This document shows positions 3,421 through 56,227 of a stretch of 64,000 nt of DNA, one piece after another. This DNA comes from an uncultured delta proteobacterium (GTDB lineage: Bacteria > Desulfobacterota > Binatia > Binatales > Binataceae): positions 992,001-1,056,000 of the forward strand of contig CAWJET010000001.1 of assembly GCA_963842085.1 (NCBI GenBank). The letters are read 5' to 3'. The position numbers and the translations under genes were made by a program. Below the pieces are notes generated by a model. The model ran no database searches and was not told where the DNA came from. It worked only from the letters and a program-made list of their open reading frames with translations. The stretch's first letter is position 1, and each line of letters begins with the position of its first letter.

Positions 3421-4296
3421 CTAGCGCGCGATGTCGTTGTCGCGCACGCTGCTGACGAAACCGCCGCTCTCGAGGCGTTTCATTAGCTCGCGCGCGAGCA
3501 CGGGTGAGCGATGGCGTCCGCCGGTGCATCCGAGGCCGACCGTCAGGTAACTCTTGCCCTCGCGCTGATAGAGCGGAATCAGAAAATCGAAAAGGCGGCC
3601 GACCTCGTCGATAAAGCGCTGCGACTCCGGCTGCGCCATCACGTGCTCGCGCACGCGCGGGTCATTCCCGGTGAGCGGCCGCAGCTCGGGGACGAAAAAG
3701 GGATTCGGGATAAACCGTACGTCGAGCACGACGTCCATCCCGACCGGCAAGCCGTACTTGTAGCCGAACGAGACGATCGACACCGCCATCCGCGAGCCGG
3801 CGCCCGCGCCCAGCACGGCCGCTGTAACAACCTCGCGCAATTCGTGGACTGTGAGCGTGGTTGTGTCGATCACCCGATTGGCCCGCTCGCGCATCTCGGC
3901 CAGCGCGAGGCGTTCGGCCCGAATGCTCTCGGCGACGGTCGCTCCGCTGGCCGCCATCGGATGCGGCCGGCGGCTCTCAGAATAACGGCGGGCGAGCACG
4001 TCGTCGGACGCGTCGAGAAAGATTACTTCTGGATGGATTCCGGCCGCATCGAGTTCCGCGAATATGCGCGGCCATTGCGGGAAGAACAGCCGCTCGCGCG
4101 GATCCACTCCGAGCGCGACGCCCTTCAGCGCGGGGTCGCGTCCGGCAGCGAGCATCGCGACATTGGGCGCCAGCGCCACCGGCAGATTATCGACGCAGTA
4201 AAAGCCCAAATCCTCGAGCACGCGCATCGCAGACGCGCGTCCCGAACCTGAGACGCCGGTGACTATTATCAGGCGGGGTGGCTGAGGCGAGCTCAT
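3421..4296 (-). CDS. rapZ: RNase adapter RapZ
   Basis: GVSGSGR, VDNLP, RRPHP, SFGYKYG and GCTGGRHRS motifs. Confidence 0.95.
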   Translation of the reverse strand: MSSPQPPRLIIVTGVSGSGRASAMRVLEDLGFYCVDNLPVALAPNVAMLAAGRDPALKGVALGVDPRERLFFPQWPRIFAELDAAGIHPEVIFLDASDDVLARRYSESRRPHPMAASGATVAESIRAERLALAEMRERANRVIDTTTLTVHELREVVTAAVLGAGAGSRMAVSIVSFGYKYGLPVGMDVVLDVRFIPNPFFVPELRPLTGNDPRVREHVMAQPESQRFIDEVGRLFDFLIPLYQREGKSYLTVGLGCTGGRHRSPVLARELMKRLESGGFVSSVRDNDIAR

Positions 4297-49536: not shown

Positions 49537-50394
49537 TTATAAGTAGAGTCGGTCGTGGTTTTGGCCCTCTCGGGGCGGTTGCTGTTGCTGTCTTTTAAGC
49601 ATGGCGAACTCGATTGGTGTCAATGCGCCGAGGCTGCTGTGTGGTCGGAGGTGATTGTAGTCGTAACGCCACGCTTCGATGGTCTCGCGCGCTTCGGCCA
49701 GGGTGAGGAAAACGTGCTCGTTGAGGCATTCGTCGCGCAGCCGGCTGTTGAACGATTCGACGAAAGCGTTCTGCACCGGCTTGCCGGGTTCGATGTATTG
49801 CCACTCCAGTCGCCCGGTGGCCCAACGCAGCACTGCGCAGCTGGTGAGCTCGGTCCCGTTGTCGCTAACCACCATCCGTGGCAGTGCGCGCTCAGCTGTT
49901 AGCCGGTCCAGTTCGCGCACCACGCGCACCCCGCCCAGTGAAGTGTCCACCACCGTGGCCAGGCATTCGCGGCTGAAGTCGTCGACCACGCATAGGATGC
50001 GGAAGCGCCGCCCGTCGCTCAGTGCGTCGGCCACGAAGTCCAGTGACCACCGTTGGTTGATCGCGCCCGGTAGCGTCATCGGCGTCCTGGTTCCCAGCGC
50101 GCGCTTGCGCCCTCTGCGCCGGCGTACCATGAGCTTTTCCTCGCGGTACAACCGATAGAGCTTCTTGCGGTTCAGCACGTGACCTTCCCTCTCCAGCAGC
50201 CAGCCCAGGCTCCGATAGCCAAAACGTCTGCGCTCAGCGGCCAGCTCGCGCAGCCGCTGCCGCAGCAGCGAATCGTCCGGCCGCCGCGGCCGATAGTGCA
50301 TGCTCGAGCGATTGAGTCCGACCAGCCTGCATGCGCGCACCTGGCTCAGCCCGCGCTGCTCGACCAGTCGAGCAACCGCCGCCTTCCGCGCCAC
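49537..50394 (-). CDS. IS3 OrfB DDE transposase
   Basis: WSLDF, SDNGTE and [10 protein letters not shown] motifs; probably fused to OrfA by a -1 frameshift at GGAAAAAAC (about 50406-50414). Confidence 0.95.
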
Positions 50395-50399
50395 AGGCT

Positions 50400-50666
50400 T
50401 CAGACGTTTTTTCCGAGCAGGTCCTTCAGCGCTGAGTTGTCCAGCATTGCTTCGGCCAGCAGCTTCTTCAGCCGCCGGTTCTCATCCTCCAGCGACTTCA
50501 GGCGGCGCGCCTCGGATACGTCGAGCCCGCCGTACTTCGCTTTCCACTTGTAAAAGGTCGCGCTTGAGATCCCGTGGCGGCGGCAAACCTCCTCGGTCTT
50601 CGCCCCCGCCTCATGTTCGCGCAGCACCCCGATGATCTGCTCCTCGCTGAATCGGCTGCCTTTCAT
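50400..50666 (-). CDS. IS3 OrfA (HTH and leucine zipper)
   Basis: [23 protein letters not shown] and [11 protein letters not shown] motifs. Confidence 0.95.
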
Positions 50667-51512
50667 TGCCCGTCTCCTTTCTGTCGACGGACTCTACCTC
50701 AAAACTGCTGGGCGTTAGGGGGTCAGGCCAGAACTATTAGCTCGCTGGAATATGCGGCTCGAGTTTATGAAAACCGACAGATTTTTCTTCTCAATTTCGG
50801 ATCTAGCTATAGATTATTCGATATTCTACTGCAGCGACTTCAGTCGGTTTGGATTCGAGTCGCTCGCGAGCGTGATAAGCAAGGGCATTCCCATCTTGGG
50901 CTGCTGATGCCCGCAACAATCCTCGAAAACCATCTTCTCCTTGGGTTCGACCACTTGGCCAGCTATCAGAGTTTTTTTGCGTGGCCGGCCTTCCGTCCCG
51001 GATTAGAAGCGTTACTGTTTATCGGCAAGTGGGTTGATGATCCGAGCGTTGTCCAGATTTGGAAAGATCGGCACGATCGCCGGGATCAGTATCGCCGCCT
51101 TTTCTCTGGGCGGGGACTGATCTCGCGCTCTCTTCCTCGTAGTGCGGAGTTTCGCGCGGTGCTGAATCGTATGAATGATGAATATCTGCACCCGAACTCA
51201 GATTTCGGATACAGACAAACTCGTGTTCGTTCCGCGTCACCTGAAACTATGGTGCTAGAGAGCCCCTTGTTTGATCGAGACCCCGTGATTCACGAGGCAC
51301 ATCTTCTGGCGTATCTACATCTGTCTGAATTGATATGCGCAAGCAGCGTGACTTTGCTGACGAACCTTCTAGGCAAAAGTGGGAAAGCAGAAATGAGCGA
51401 GGTCTCAGTGAACAGTAATCGCGCTAAAGAGATTGCTCGGGCGCATGAGGGCGCTAAAAGGGTGATGGAAGAACTCGGGCTATTCAGATTTTAGCCGGGC
51501 CAAAATCCGGAC

Positions 51513-51597
51513 GCAGAATCTTGAATCGCGCGCGGAAAAGAATCGCGCGCTGGACAACGACCCTCACCTTCATCCTCTCCCTTACAGGGCGAAGGGA
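51513..51597 (+). repeat. Composite palindromic repeat (type 1), copy B
   Basis: GCAGAATCTTGAATCGCGCGCGGAAAAGAATCGCGCGCTG..CCCTCACCTTCATCCTCTCCCT..AGGGCGAAGGGA. Confidence 0.85.
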
Positions 51598-51741
51598 TTA
51601 AGAGCGGAGGCGGGAAAGAAAGCTCGGGTCCCTCAGCTCGGGATGACGGAATGTCAAAGTATTCGTGTTTTGTTCTCCTGAACTAAAAGGGGATTAGTAG
51701 GTTGTTGACACCGTCATGGGAAAAATGTAATTATTGAATGC

Positions 51742-51978
51742 ATGTCGGACTACAGCGACTATAACGAGCAGTTGCGAAGGATTCGAGAACTGCTAATAGC
51801 GCTCGGCGAAGTGATAGATGACCTGACCTCAGAGGATTGGGATTCGTGGACTGAACTGAGGCGACGCCTTCCGCACGAAAAGCCAGCCGATAGTAAGCTG
51901 CTCAGGCTCAGGCACGAAACAGACGACCTGAAAAGAATGGGAGATGATTTAATTCGCATTCTCATGAGACACGAGTGA
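51742..51978 (+). CDS. Small helical hypothetical protein inside the IS1595 element
   Basis: 78-aa ORF between the left IR and the transposase, 6 bp before its start. Confidence 0.55.
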   Translation: MSDYSDYNEQLRRIRELLIALGEVIDDLTSEDWDSWTELRRRLPHEKPADSKLLRLRHETDDLKRMGDDLIRILMRHE

Positions 51979-51984
51979 ACTACG

Positions 51985-52917
51985 ATGCAAACGTTGGATG
52001 CTTTCGACAAACGGTTTCCGGACGATAACGCCTGCAAGCAGTATCTCAAAGCGATGCGCTGGCCCGATGCCGTGCGCTGCCCGCGCTGCAAGAGCGAAAA
52101 GATATTCGAGCTAAAGGCACGCCCATTCAATTGGGTCTGCAAGAGCGGCGCGACCAGCAACGATCCGCACACTGGCAAGCTGGTGCTGTGCGACAAGCAA
52201 AACGGCTATCGCTTCTCGATCATCACGCATACGATTTTTGAGAATACCAAGCGCCCGCTCCGGTCGTGGTTCAAGATCGCGTTCCTGATGCTCGTCTCGA
52301 AGAAGGGGGTATCGGCCTTGCAGCTTCATCGCATGATGTACGGCTCGAAGCATCTGAACAATTACCATACGACTTGGTATCAGTGCATGAGACTGCGCGC
52401 CGCCATGAAAGATTCCGAGTGGGAACAACTGATGGGCGTGGTCGAGATCGATGAGGTCTATCTTGGCGGTCTGGAGCGCAACAAGCACAAGAGCGAACGC
52501 ACCAACCGGCGCGGGCTTGCCGGAAAGACCGAAGTGATCGGGGCCATCGCCCGCAAAGGCAACGTGGTCTGCCAGATGGTCGAGGATGCGGATTTCCGCA
52601 CGTATGACGATTTCGTCCGAAAAACGGTTTCGGGTAGAGTCGATCTAATCGCGACTGATGAGAGTTTCCGCTATCGCCATCTGAATCGGATGGGCTTCAA
52701 GCACGATTTCGTCACGCACAAGAACGATGAGTTCGTACGGGGCAAAGTCCATACGCAGACGATTGAGTCGTTCTGGTCGTTGCTCCGGCGCGGCATCATG
52801 GGCAGCTACCATAAGGTGAGCAAGGATTATCTGCCGCTGTATTTGAGCGAGTTTACTTATCGCCACAATCGGAGAAACGCAGACGATCCGTTTGCGGAGT
52901 TAATATCAAACGCGTAG
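51985..52917 (+). CDS. IS1595-family transposase
   Basis: RWPDAVRCPRC zinc ribbon, GVSALQL HTH, VEIDEVY / IATDE / TIESFWS triad and YLSEF motif. Confidence 0.95.
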   Translation: MQTLDAFDKRFPDDNACKQYLKAMRWPDAVRCPRCKSEKIFELKARPFNWVCKSGATSNDPHTGKLVLCDKQNGYRFSIITHTIFENTKRPLRSWFKIAFLMLVSKKGVSALQLHRMMYGSKHLNNYHTTWYQCMRLRAAMKDSEWEQLMGVVEIDEVYLGGLERNKHKSERTNRRGLAGKTEVIGAIARKGNVVCQMVEDADFRTYDDFVRKTVSGRVDLIATDESFRYRHLNRMGFKHDFVTHKNDEFVRGKVHTQTIESFWSLLRRGIMGSYHKVSKDYLPLYLSEFTYRHNRRNADDPFAELISNA

Positions 52918-52956
52918 CGGTTGCGCGTGTGCCCGTCGCTTCGGTAACGTGGCGAC

Positions 52957-53130
52957 GTGGCAACAAAGTCAGATTCACCGGCAATCAAGCGAAAGACAAA
53001 AGAACTCCGCGCCGCACTCGCAAATCCCGATATGGTGGAGTTCGATCGGATGATGCGGCATTTGACTAACGTGCCGAAATCGAAGATCGACGCTAACGAG
53101 AAAAAGATGCGGGGCAAGTCTGCTAGATAG
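52957..53130 (+). CDS. Small basic ORF downstream of the transposase (57 aa)
   Basis: Own translation: MATKSDSPAIKRKTKELRAALANPDMVEFDRMMRHLTNVPKSKIDANEKKMRGKSAR*. Confidence 0.5.
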   Translation: MATKSDSPAIKRKTKELRAALANPDMVEFDRMMRHLTNVPKSKIDANEKKMRGKSAR

Positions 53131-53149
53131 AAGGACCGCTCGCTCTTTT

Positions 53150-53650
53150 TTACGGTCTAGGCTTGAACGATCCAGGTACCGGTCCAATCGATTCTGGCTC
53201 GATTAGGTTCCTTTGCTTGCTAATTATCGTCGGTTCAGTTGGAGTCACGAGCTTCGCGACTGACGAAAAGTCCCTGTCCCAAGCCTGCAATTCATCAACT
53301 TGCATTCGGATCGCGGTTGCCGCATGGACAGCATCTGCTGACCTAAGCGAATGGTCTCTCTCAAGGCCAAGGGCTCGGAATGCTATGTCCTGATCCGAGG
53401 GCACTTTCTCTACCCACGACCATCTAAACATCTTTTCGATTTCTGCAATTTCCGCTGGAGTTAGTAGTCTTGCGTTGGGGATGCTTACCTTCTTAGGTCT
53501 GACCGTTTCCACAATCGTATAGGTCGAGGTATAAATGCGACAATTGCCAGTTCTGGCGTTACGAAGAATATCCTCGCAAATCCGCCGTCGTTCTTGTTCC
53601 ACCGGGCTTAGGAAGCACAAGAAGACCGTCGTATCCCAATATAGTTTCAT
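53150..53650 (-). CDS. PIN-domain (VapC-like) nuclease
   Basis: LYWDTTVF, TIVE, LRSADAVHAATA and AWDRDF acidic catalytic pattern. Confidence 0.9.
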   Translation of the reverse strand: MKLYWDTTVFLCFLSPVEQERRRICEDILRNARTGNCRIYTSTYTIVETVRPKKVSIPNARLLTPAEIAEIEKMFRWSWVEKVPSDQDIAFRALGLERDHSLRSADAVHAATAIRMQVDELQAWDRDFSSVAKLVTPTEPTIISKQRNLIEPESIGPVPGSFKPRP

Positions 53651-53668
53651 CGCCTAAAGGAGAGAACT

Positions 53669-54475
53669 TTATTCGTCGTCGCGAATCGCCTTGATATAGT
53701 CGCGAACCGACATCCCCGCCGTTATATTCTCAATGGAGCCAGACATCCGTTCGATCGTCGGGAGTTCCTCATCCTTTGGATACGGTTCGATGTTCATTGC
53801 TTCTACGGAGACAATGTTGCCAAGCCTATTGATCCGACTCTTGCCCACCACCATTACTCTCTTTCCGAGTTCTGCCTTTGCTTTTTCCAAGAGATTGTCA
53901 CTGAAAAAACATCTCACAGCCTTTTGGTTGCGTTCATCCCAGACTCTGAATTCATTACCCTTGTGAACCGTTATCGAATCTAGACTGCCTACTATCGAGG
54001 CTTCCTCTTCACGAGCACTTCTCGTTAGGGCATCGATGTTCTCATAGACTTCTAAAGTAACTTGCGCCTCATCGTTGTCCGAAGTTACGTCGATTTCGGA
54101 GAAGCTCTTGTGACGGAAGCGCGCGAGTTTTTGCGTCCTGCTCAAAGCAGCATCCGAATAGCGCTCCGTTCTCTCGGGGCGTTCCGCTAGTAACCGAATA
54201 CCGCGAACGCATTCATGCGCTACTTCGTGCGCCCGACTTACACCCACGCTTTGAGGACGGCCTCGATATCCGATTTTGGCGGGGCTATTCTTCGACAGAA
54301 TCGATATTTCCCATTCAACGGTGCCCTGCTTATTGCCGGACACCGATGCATCCAAATCTTGAAGGAGCCAGAGGAAGTAAGTGAGCGCTTGAACAAAAGG
54401 ACGCGCCGGGATCAAATCCCCGTAGCCCGCGAGCGTCAGCACTACCGTATCTTCCATGTTCCGATTGGCGACCAT
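53669..54475 (-). CDS. Hypothetical partner of the PIN nuclease (possible OB fold plus antitoxin-like tail)
   Basis: 268-aa ORF, 18 bp upstream of and co-oriented with the PIN gene; lower GC by eye. Confidence 0.8.
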   Translation of the reverse strand: MVANRNMEDTVVLTLAGYGDLIPARPFVQALTYFLWLLQDLDASVSGNKQGTVEWEISILSKNSPAKIGYRGRPQSVGVSRAHEVAHECVRGIRLLAERPERTERYSDAALSRTQKLARFRHKSFSEIDVTSDNDEAQVTLEVYENIDALTRSAREEEASIVGSLDSITVHKGNEFRVWDERNQKAVRCFFSDNLLEKAKAELGKRVMVVGKSRINRLGNIVSVEAMNIEPYPKDEELPTIERMSGSIENITAGMSVRDYIKAIRDDE

Positions 54476-54647
54476 AACTCACTTCCTGCCAGCAATTCTA
54501 CTCGCCGATTCAGGCGGTCATTTGCTGACTGTCGTAGCGATCAAAAGGCAAATATATCACTACGCTCATGTCAACGGTGTCCGGCCTGTCACGCAAGACG
54601 AGCCTATCAGGTCCGGTGTCAACAGTCTACTAATCCCCAACTAAAAA

Positions 54648-54663
54648 CGTTTCACGTGAAACA
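54648..54663. other. parS-like site
   Basis: CGTTTCACGTGAAACA, 15/16 match to consensus TGTTTCACGTGAAACA. Confidence 0.78.
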
Positions 54664-54736
54664 TTTTTGTGAAAACCCCAGCCGGACAGCGCCATTTCTG
54701 ACCATTCTCAGAAAATCGACTGCCATTGCGCGCGGC

Positions 54737-55170
54737 GGATCCGGGATTCTTCGCTGCGCTCTGAATGACACAAAAAGTGAGCAGGCCAGCTTTTTGTGAA
54801 CCCAGCGGGGCGCCCTCACCTGCCGGCCGCGATGCGGCCGGCCGCCTCTCCCGTGAAATAACGGGCGAGGTACGGGGATGCAGAATCTTGAATCGCGCGG
54901 AAAATAATCGCGCGCTGAACAAGGACCCTCACCTTCGCCTCGCCCTGCATGGGAGAGGGGATGCAAGGACGCGGCGAGAAAAGAGCCGGGATTCTTCGCT
55001 GCGCTCTGAATGACACAAAGAAATGCCCCTCCTCGCGTAAATGCCCGTCTCCTTAAACACTGGGTGCAGGGGTCACCCCTGCACCGCAAAACCGGAACCG
55101 GCGGCGCTTGCGTGCCGCTGTCCGAGATCCTTCCTGCCGCTCGCGTTGCTCGCTGCGTCAGGATGACAGA
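54737..55170 (+). repeat. Cluster of REP-like palindromes
   Basis: Type 2 at 54737-54770 and 54986-55015; type 1 copy C at 54880-54961; type 1 variant at about 54813-54870; type 3 at 55059-55082; type 2 variant GAGATCCTTC..CAGGATGACA at about 55124-55168. Confidence 0.85.
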
Positions 55171-55207
55171 GAGTTTCAGATTCAATTGAAGTGATAGTCT
55201 CTCCCGT

Positions 55208-56227
55208 ATGACGATGGGGCCAAAGAAAGCGCGGGCGATACGGCGGGTGCTGGTTATTTTTCCCGGCGCGCTGGGAGATCTGATGTGCGTGCTGCCGGCG
55301 CTCGCCGCGATAGCGCGGCGGCATCCGGGGGCGTCGGTTGAGTTGATGGCGCGGTTCGAGCTGGCGCAGCTCGCGGTGGGGAGAACCGTCGTTGCGCGCG
55401 CGCATTCGATTGACGCTCGCGAGGTCGGCGCATTGTTCACCGAGTCCGGCGCAGATCCCGCACGCCGATTGTTTGGGGATTTCGAGCGCATTTACTCGTT
55501 CTTCGCGTCGGACGACCGGCGTTTTCGCGCGCGATTGGAAGCGGCGACCGATGGCGCGGTTTCGTTTCATCCGTTCCGCCCCGATGGCGACGGCCACGTA
55601 TCGGCGGGCTATTTGCGCGGGATCGGCGAGGAGGTTTCGCCGGTGAGTCCCGGGCTCGAACCGACCGCGGATGATCTCGCCGCGGCGGCGCATGTGCTGG
55701 CGCAATCGAAATGCGACAGCTCGAATTTGATTGTGATTTTTCCGGGCAGTGGGAGTCCGGCGAAGAATTGGCCGGCGGACAAGTTCGCGGCGCTTGCGTC
55801 GATGCTGGCGAAAGGATCCGGGATTCTTCGCTCCGCAGACTCCGCTCTGAATGACAAAGGGGCTGATCAGAACGACGAAAGGCATTCGTGCGTGGTCGTT
55901 CTCGGGCCGGCTGAAACGGCACTTGAGCCGAGCTTTCGCGCGGCTGGCCTTCCTGTGCTGACGCAGCTCGATTTGCCGACGGTCGCGGCTGTCGCGCGGC
56001 TTGCATCGGCCTTCGTCGGAGTCGATTCGGGCGTGTCGCATCTGGCGGCCGCGGCCGGCGCGTCCGGGGTGGTGCTCTTCGGGCCGACGGAGCCTGCGCG
56101 ATGGCGTCCGCTGGGGCCAGGCGGCAGCGGGCAAGTCGGCGTTCTGAGGCGGAGTCCGATCGATTCCATCGAGGTGCGCGAGGTCGCCGGCGCTTTGGCA
56201 AAATTTGTGGCGACGCATCAAAAATAA
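55208..56227 (+). CDS. Family 9 glycosyltransferase (LPS heptosyltransferase-like)
   Basis: [29 protein letters not shown] and LFGPT..W.P motifs. Confidence 0.92.
55814..55856 (+). repeat. Type 2 REP-like element inside the GT9 reading frame
   Basis: GGATCCGGGATTCTTCGCT-CCGCAGACTC-CGCTCTGAATGACA versus intergenic GGATCCGGGATTCTTCGCT-G-CGCTCTGAATGACA. Confidence 0.88.

Follow-up and report, generated by a model that had tools for sequence, protein, structure and literature searches.

A conserved gene pair encoding a PIN nuclease and a large, putatively OB-fold-containing partner as recurrent cargo of IS1595-family insertion sequences

An IS1595-family element with two passenger genes

The window considered here is a stretch of 64,000 nucleotides (positions 992,001 to 1,056,000 of contig CAWJET010000001.1, assembly GCA_963842085.1) from an uncultured delta proteobacterium of the Binataceae. 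It harbors a 2,950-bp insertion sequence (IS) of the IS1595 family with five open reading frames (ORFs) between its inverted repeats (IRs). Two of these, coding for a PIN-domain nuclease and for a partner of 268 amino acids (aa) referred to as p268, form an operon that is convergent to the transposase gene; p268 comes first and is followed by the PIN gene after a gap of 18 nt. An intact IS1595 element with transposase and convergent two-gene passenger operon had already been proposed in an initial inspection of the letters and their ORFs (hereafter the sequence-only reading), and the ORFs together with the models NF033547, PF12762 and PF12760 bear this out. The features are as follows, with positions counted in the window:

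51681–51688, no strand: left copy of the 8-bp target-site duplication, AACTAAAA, identical to 54639–54646
51689–51713, + strand: left terminal inverted repeat (IRL), from the inverted-repeat search
51742–51978, + strand: 78-aa ORF between IRL and transposase, from the ORF list; possibly not a gene
51985–52917, + strand: intact DDE transposase of the IS1595 family (310 aa), which bears a zinc ribbon at its N-terminus (NF033547, PF12762, PF12760)
52957–53130, + strand: small basic ORF (57 aa) from a family that belongs to the IS backbone, from hmmsearch over small ORFs
53150–53650, − strand: PIN-domain nuclease, VapC-like, 166 aa (PF01850, 2e-9; catalytic acids present)
53669–54475, − strand: p268, the 268-aa partner of PIN (ORF list, model, alignments)
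54614–54638, − strand: right terminal inverted repeat (IRR), from the inverted-repeat search
54639–54646, no strand: right copy of the target-site duplication, AACTAAAA, read from the sequence

The terminal inverted repeats comprise 25 nt, are complementary at 23 of these (92%) and represent the best of 21 inverted pairs in 51000–55500, which essentially confirms the 24 bp with 22 matches given by the sequence-only reading. The 8-bp duplication named there is likewise present, perfect and directly outside both repeats. The transposase matches NF033547 (4.6e-49, 1–215 of 215), PF12762 (3.4e-35, 1–153 of 153) and, with residues 12–54, the zinc ribbon PF12760 (1.6e-11). Catalytic domain, zinc ribbon, inverted repeats and 8-bp duplication are thus all those of the IS1595 family, and with p268 and PIN as passengers inside repeats and duplication, the element is an intact transporter IS (tIS) of this family that has probably been mobile recently. 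Its IR ends, GGGGATTAG, share the pattern GGnnATTA...TTGAC with those of two related elements (GGCAATTAT in locus L018, GGTAATTAT in locus L025) and resemble the consensus of the ISNwi1 subgroup, a likeness that serves as a lead only. The element occurs as a single copy in its 4.93-Mb genome, and its GC content of 0.47–0.55 compares with 0.62–0.66 in the flanks.

A TTGACA hexamer inside IRL forms, together with 51729–51734, a promoter-like site (TTGACA-18-AATTAT, 10/12), although such sites are no more frequent in the region than chance would give (two observed versus 2.9 expected from shuffles). The promoter scan returned no sigma-70-like site for the cargo operon, and no Rfam family was matched in its leader or elsewhere in the element.

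p268 and PIN form a conserved module

Fifty-one loci with p268 homologues were gathered, ten from species genomes (all Acidobacteriota metagenome-assembled genomes) and 41 from metagenomes. A PIN gene lies directly downstream of p268 in 48 of the 51, and in 43 of the 45 that extend at least 450 nt downstream (tblastn). Of the three loci without an adjacent PIN gene, one breaks off at a contig end (L015), one retains just the first residues of a decayed PIN (L057) and one has a fragment of p268 (L059). PIN also adjoins p268 in all five further loci examined, namely two from a phylum sample (L074, L075), a phage (L076) and two viral contigs (L077, L078). These adjacency counts thus cover an Acidobacteriota-centered subset plus five other loci out of about 3,000 family representatives. 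In most loci the two genes overlap by 4–11 nt; otherwise they are 18 nt apart.

Furthermore, the pairwise identities of p268 and of PIN correlate with each other (r 0.78, n=33 loci, permutation p 0.001); duplicates (L021, L027, L043, L046, L051, L054) and partial ORFs were left out of this test and of the trees described below. The p268–PIN pair is a conserved module, and the co-occurrence of homologous pairs on which the sequence-only reading had made its proposal depend is found as synteny.

Repeated association with IS1595 elements

Upstream sequence of 1,000 nt or more is available for 32 loci, of which 23 carry an IS1595 transposase gene, in some cases a remnant, 135–636 nt upstream of p268 and on the same strand. 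Element boundaries were searched for in 23 loci. In 12 of these, inverted repeats (at least 15/20) and a perfect 8/8 duplication enclose transposase, p268 and PIN; the remaining 11 could not be called owing to contig ends or weaker matches. The 12 bounded loci correspond to eight distinct insertions of 2.55–3.29 kb (L017; L018 = L051; L025 = L027 = L054; L031; L032; L033; L045 = L046; L052), so that at least nine independent insertions are found when the window is included. That the module moves with the IS, as the sequence-only reading held, hence receives stronger support than a single element could offer. All eight other insertions are co-directional in the order transposase, p268, PIN, while the cargo of the window is convergent.

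In a quick maximum-likelihood tree of 22 transposases, assessed by the Shimodaira–Hasegawa-like approximate likelihood ratio test (SH-aLRT) only, the enzyme of the window groups with three from its own genome (L062, L063, L065; SH-aLRT 98), and L018 and L045 form a separate clade (SH-aLRT 100). The remaining PIN-carrying enzymes fall into a third part in which the own-genome transposases L068 and L071 are nested. Transposases that accompany the pair thus belong to at least three groups that are interleaved with own-genome transposases bearing other cargo. The p268 tree contains a clade A with the window, L019, L020, L009–L012 and L022, in which a transposase was seen in the window only, and a clade B of 30 rows with longer PIN proteins and a transposase at most loci. 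The transposase, too, co-varies in pairwise identity with both cargo proteins (r 0.61, n=16 for p268 and r 0.55, n=15 for PIN). Yet, L024 and L025 share 63% identity in p268 and 67% in PIN versus only 38% in the transposase, and cargo that is more alike than the transposases indicates swapping. On the simplest reading, at least three transfers of the module from one IS1595 lineage to another took place, and the window represents an independent capture.

The genome of the window encodes about ten other IS1595 transposases with 37–55% identity, the nearest of which share 51–55% with the enzyme of the window. Several belong to tIS with other passengers: a 2,021-bp element with a 317-aa ORF and the perfect duplication CAAATTTG occurs in three identical copies (L068–L070) and has hence been recently active, a 2,036-bp element with a convergent 184-aa ORF occurs in two copies (L063/L064), and two more elements (L065, L066) carry a 279-aa ORF in one case and a P63C-domain protein in the other. 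Besides P63C, no Pfam match was obtained for these passengers.

The small ORFs of the elements can be assigned in part. For the 57-aa ORF, hmmsearch over the small ORFs of all loci yielded a family of 18 matches with the motif F-D/E..R...VPK..ID followed by a K/R-rich tail. In the co-directional elements its members come after PIN; both in the window and in those IS1595 copies of the same genome that have no PIN cargo (L071, L068–L070), they come after the transposase. The presence of this family in copies without p268–PIN makes it a part of the IS backbone, and the same distribution led us to reject the 57-aa protein as the true antitoxin of PIN. Members of 43–57 aa, basic and beside the right IR, are found at 52957–53130 of the window, L025 5420–5575, L017 5577–5747, L071 1191–1355 and L068 3244–3375; they are possibly DNA-binding transposition accessories. 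The common cargo slot accordingly lies between transposase and small backbone ORF, while the cargo of the window follows the small ORF in inverted orientation. The 78-aa ORF has no match in Pfam, NCBIfam, PADLOC or PHROGs, nor by tblastn in the 51 related loci. The 3.28-kb co-directional elements (L025, L027, L054) contain an extra 175-aa ORF (L025 5581–6108) between small ORF and right IR, the product of which is hydrophobic with apparently membrane-spanning stretches (judged by eye) and has no Pfam match above the cut-off.

The PIN nuclease and its partner

The PIN protein matches a single Pfam model, the VapC-type PF01850. Its acidic residues D6, E48, D106 and D125 are invariant in 30 homologues and D127 is nearly so, in line with the intact-looking nuclease of the sequence-only reading; the acidic active-site residues expected of a VapBC toxin are hence conserved. 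A sequence comparison with the Protein Data Bank (PDB) yielded a weak match to a VapC (7by2_B, E 0.011). Clade A proteins are short (about 166–172 aa), and those of clade B are extended by an insertion of 35–45 residues after the second strand region.

For p268, no match was found in Pfam, NCBIfam, PADLOC or PHROGs. A word-index search yielded 28 homologues of 261–308 aa with 29–82% identity and one 151-aa fragment. A full hidden Markov model search recovered 3,171 cluster representatives at E<=1e-3, 2,011 at <=1e-10 and 284 at <=1e-30, nearly all of 255–280 aa. Its neighbors in the ESM Atlas are all clusters of hypothetical proteins that share no Pfam family. Because homologues mostly begin near the second methionine of p268 (codon 7), the true start may be at 54457. 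With 268 aa the partner is far larger than VapB, as had been emphasized by the sequence-only reading.

An AlphaFold2 model of p268 (mean predicted local distance difference test score, pLDDT, of 87) suggests three parts: a ferredoxin-like N-domain (1–152), an OB fold (154–237) and a conserved C-terminal tail (238–268). Both the N-terminal alpha/beta region and the OB fold had been expected at these places by the sequence-only reading. The predicted OB region, with pLDDT 83–93 for residues 150–230, forms the five-stranded closed beta-barrel typical of this fold. It superposes with a VIA Z score of 9.6 on a single-stranded DNA-binding protein (SSB) chain (4dam_A; root-mean-square deviation 3.6 over 82 residues), of 9.3 on SSBb (5gqo_B) and of 8.8 on the N-domain of MCM, where scores of 8–10 imply a common fold only and not a common function. 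Foldseek returned nine matches at E<=1e-3, among them SSB and anticodon domains of lysyl-tRNA synthetase, with 5gqo_B at E 5e-4. Small SSBs are the closest relatives in the model comparison, followed by MCM N-domains, RPA, PriB and the anticodon domains of aminoacyl-tRNA synthetases (aaRS). By sequence, nothing meaningful was retrieved from the PDB and no kinship to OB proteins is apparent. The conserved aromatic residues F176 and W179 are located on the OB strands, and together with the predicted fold they suggest that p268 may bind nucleic acid.

Modeled alone (pLDDT 93), the N-domain adopts a beta-alpha-beta-beta-alpha-alpha-beta-beta-alpha order that is ferredoxin- or RRM-like. This arrangement is generic: no particular structure stood out in the searches, where the top scores were a VIA Z of 5.9 and a Foldseek E of 0.089. 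The lack of a specific relative does not count as evidence for a new fold. The last roughly 30 residues of p268 are among the best conserved and carry the motif LP...G..PD.TGG....EY.R..R in the wide family. A tail that is conserved and yet modeled at low confidence (pLDDT 64–72) is as expected for a segment that folds on a partner. Since no catalytic-looking invariant set of residues is discernible, p268 is probably a binding protein.

The leader of p268

A conserved box, AGTGTAYCAC, with GGAGG after it, is located within 40 nt upstream of the start of p268 in clade B and also in L010 and L022. Pairing is possible between the flanks of this box so that the ribosome-binding site comes to lie inside, and farther upstream there is a variable hairpin. 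Two alignments place the box at L044 3960–4003, at L025 3960–4003 and in 23 other loci. Pairing of the flanks is more favorable within a locus than across loci (−10.9 vs −9.5 kcal/mol, permutation p 0.0004, 25 loci), although the sequences compared are related to one another. RNAalifold gave no consensus structure for an 88-nt leader alignment in which the variable hairpin is poorly aligned. The p268 leader of the window itself is without the box.

Occurrence outside IS1595 elements

In nine of the 32 loci with enough room, no transposase accompanies the pair. The closest relatives of the window with flanking DNA (L020 and L021, 63% p268 identity) lie beside an SDR-like gene and show no transposase within 1.1–1.7 kb downstream. 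Among 50,697 phage records, a single one carries the family, the temperate Pseudomonas phage vB_PaeS_AV001 (L076, PQ349086.1). There, a p268 homologue of 278 aa and, with an 11-nt overlap, a 177-aa PIN protein (PF01850, 2.1e-8; L076 4728–5261) are encoded directly after an S24 CI-like repressor. The PIN protein is annotated as "repressor protein" and its neighbor as hypothetical; the former label is probably a misannotation. In the 41.6-kb viral contig L077, a 74-aa RHH/CopG-like ORF (3754–3978) is found immediately upstream of p268, which is followed by PIN, and this arrangement may be a three-gene variant of the module with an added classical regulator or antitoxin. Within the phylum sample, p268 occurs in three of 301 genomes including that of the window, in the one genus mate not at all and in neither of the two family mates.

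Signs of insertion polymorphism in soil contigs

Contigs from four soil runs were aligned to 50900–55400 at 90% likeness. In three runs, a contig joins 51685 to 54643 and thus omits 2,957 nt, with three ambiguous letters; in three runs, a contig joins 51687 to 54648 with four different letters in between. Both joints, which represent two sequence variants from three of the four runs, lie within a few bases (1–3 nt) of the element ends, although their sides measure only 20–26 nt in an area rich in dispersed repeats, and repeats or other organisms can yield such joints as well. Other soil contigs cross the left junction (51659 onward). Contigs that join the flanks fit an insertion polymorphism and hence recent mobility; they suggest, as a hint, that genomes without the insertion coexist with carriers. 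In two runs the depth of the element is about half that of its flanks, a contig-based figure that is not comparable between regions and was not relied on.

Sequences around the element

Short dispersed repeats surround the element (51505–51575, 54876–54936, 54738–54774 and 54983–55019). The unit of about 65 nt to its left has 40 matches of 78–100% identity on both contigs of the genome, its summed depth across the soil runs is very high, and it has the appearance of a repetitive extragenic palindromic (REP)-like intergenic repeat family. At 49537–50666 (− strand), 1 kb left of the tIS, an IS3-family element encodes orfA (HTH_Tnp_1, 88 aa) and orfB (rve, 285 aa). A copy of this orfB, equal in length and identical in its first 50 residues, is found in the own-genome locus L067 beside an IS1595 remnant. 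Between the IS3 element and the tIS, a 306-aa ORF (50574–51494, + strand; GC 0.51–0.55) without Pfam match is a further remnant of foreign DNA or else no gene at all.

Proposed role and alternative explanations

Taken together, the pair is probably, although with considerable reserve, a VapBC-like toxin–antitoxin (TA) or abortive-infection cargo with an atypically large partner. The backbone of the element consists of the two inverted repeats, the transposase and the small basic ORF, and the cargo of a self-contained module that IS1595 elements captured repeatedly. The downstream PIN gene would provide a Mg-dependent ribonuclease toxin. Encoded upstream and presumably co-translated, p268 would bind PIN directly and so keep it inactive, most likely via its conserved flexible C-terminal tail. 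The OB fold and the ferredoxin/RRM-like N-domain might bind nucleic acid and thus serve trigger sensing or autoregulation. Conceivable pay-offs are addiction, in which loss of the element or of host DNA releases PIN, abortive-infection defense, or both; either would explain why the pair is carried by unrelated mobile elements, i.e. IS1595 lineages, a temperate phage and viral contigs. A more far-reaching version appears unlikely: here, the pair would be no random passenger but a selected accessory module of one lineage of IS1595 elements that represents a new class of "armed" insertion sequences, with a large RNA- or single-stranded DNA (ssDNA)-binding p268 that gates PIN and controls its own translation via the conserved leader hairpin sequestering the ribosome-binding site. 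The nuclease would thus be released in response to invading nucleic acid or to the element's own state.

Several observations weigh against a TA or abortive-infection role. No HTH, RHH, AbrB or Phd DNA-binding domain was detected in p268 (Pfam/NCBIfam, E<=1), and it matches no known antitoxin family. The RHH-like ORF that precedes p268 in L077 raises the possibility that a third, antitoxin-like gene neutralizes PIN in some contexts. None of 72,556 PLSDB plasmid records carries the family (three family members as queries), which is odd for an addiction module. PADLOC-DB v2.0 (2023 library) returned no family for any of the five ORFs at E<=1. The neighborhood is a housekeeping one without a defense island (CarD, Lnt, a PLP enzyme, a GT9 transferase, HtpX and PBP1A), so that the defense-island setting raised by the sequence-only reading did not materialize. 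Fused p268–PIN forms were not found in searches that covered lengths other than 470–539 aa, which is weak evidence. The short sides of the soil joints and their repeat-rich surroundings temper the case for recent mobility.

Some of these points bear differently on a dedicated anti-phage abortive-infection system, in which p268 would act as sensor and activator, its OB fold recognizing phage ssDNA, RNA or an SSB-like protein and activating a latent PIN, without post-segregational killing. Absence from plasmids fits such defense better than plasmid addiction, and its patchy occurrence in three of 301 genomes, the likeness of the OB region to SSB, PriB and RPA chains, the position beside a CI-like repressor in the immunity region of a temperate Pseudomonas phage and the presence in viral contigs can be read in the same way. 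Yet, no PADLOC model was matched, the locus lies outside any defense island, only one of 50,697 phage records carries the pair, and gene order and overlaps are typical of classical type II TA pairs; we thus regard this explanation as doubtful. The frequent company of the transposase (23 of 32 loci) could instead mean that the pair serves the IS itself, for example in regulation of transposase mRNA, processing of intermediates or retention bias, by a logic like that of accessory nucleases in other IS families or of TA pairs in Tn3 modules. The identities of p268 and PIN track that of the transposase, the arrangement is kept down to 22% p268 identity (L075), and a conserved leader box with hairpin lies between transposase and p268. 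A transposition-linked role is nevertheless decidedly unlikely, because nine of the 32 loci as well as the phage and viral contigs have no transposase, own-genome relatives transpose with other cargo or none (one in three identical copies), the slot is also occupied by unrelated genes, the cargo of the window is inverted behind the small ORF, and the L024/L025 comparison indicates swapping.

PIN proteins that are not part of TA systems are in many cases processing enzymes. Accordingly, p268 and PIN could form a non-toxic two-subunit enzyme, an ordinary accessory cargo in which p268 recognizes the substrate through its OB and RRM-like parts and the PIN RNase cuts a specific RNA of the cell or the element. 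Two predicted folds typical of RNA- or ssDNA-binding proteins, the missing catalytic signature of p268 and the co-variation of both proteins agree with this idea, but sporadic occurrence, mobile contexts and the existence of decayed copies (L057, L059) rather characterize selfish or defense modules and the only Pfam model matched by PIN is VapC-type, so that we deem it highly unlikely.

If the favored reading of a TA or abortive-infection cargo is true, minimal insertion sequences would join plasmids, prophages, integrons, integrative and conjugative elements (ICEs) and Tn3 transposons as regular carriers of TA modules. In any case, the p268 family, with its 3,171 cluster representatives and no Pfam model, is marked as an obligate neighbor of PIN with an architecture unlike known antitoxins. 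Should p268 be a gatekeeper that senses nucleic acid, a new control of VapC-type RNases and a candidate anti-phage system outside present catalogues would emerge. Under the "armed" IS reading, p268 would establish a new and widespread family of antitoxins or sensors, comprising about 3,000 clusters, whose mechanism differs from that of every VapB. For an ordinary TA pair, the value would mainly lie in annotation, i.e. the naming of the family and the relabeling of the phage PIN "repressor protein". The pair offers a clean, testable system.

Comparison with known systems

As defined by ISfinder and TnCentral, tIS of the IS1595 family combine a DDE transposase with IS1595 domain, a zinc ribbon, short inverted repeats, an 8-bp duplication and passengers inside, all of which recur here. 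The difference lies in the specific p268–PIN cargo with at least nine independent insertions in at least three transposase lineages, and no paper was found that names cargo of this type for IS1595. A match of the pair to an already described system, which would have spoken against the sequence-only reading, was not obtained in Pfam, NCBIfam, PADLOC, PHROGs or the literature; in particular, searches of mostly open-access literature for IS1595 passengers, ISNwi1 and PIN with OB-fold antitoxins or defense returned no description of it.

With VapBC, the module shares a PIN gene located just downstream of its partner and often overlapping it, the four acids and the presence on mobile elements. In contrast, the partner has 268 instead of fewer than 100 aa, lacks an HTH, RHH, AbrB or Phd domain as well as a Pfam or NCBIfam family, and is predicted to possess OB and ferredoxin-like parts instead. 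As p268 is thus not a small antitoxin with an N-terminal DNA-binding domain, the pair is not classed as VapBC. In the accessible part of the NetFlax study, PIN toxins are paired with PanA, RHH and other antitoxins, and its main text is without the term OB fold (PMC10440598). The predicted OB region of p268 (154–237) superposes on those of SSB, PriB, RPA and aaRS anticodon domains and has conserved aromatics on its strands, but it shows no sequence relationship to them and is accompanied by extra N- and C-terminal parts.

According to the consulted portion of a 2025 review, TA systems are carried by ICEs, prophages, integrons and transposons, and IS clusters come up there in connection with type VII systems alone (PMC12548467). 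The nearest precedent for transposon-borne TA, as far as these sources extend, is found in the Tn3 family (Lima-Mendez et al. 2020, PMC7157771; TnCentral preprint), where TA-type pairs including PIN toxins are likewise carried by transposons. Compared with the consulted parts of these reports, the present element differs in its IS1595 affiliation, its single DDE transposase without resolvase or res site, its other partner protein and a slot shared with unrelated genes. Hence, the type of element and the TA-like logic are of already known kinds, and what is new is that the cargo of these tIS belongs to an undescribed family of PIN partners.

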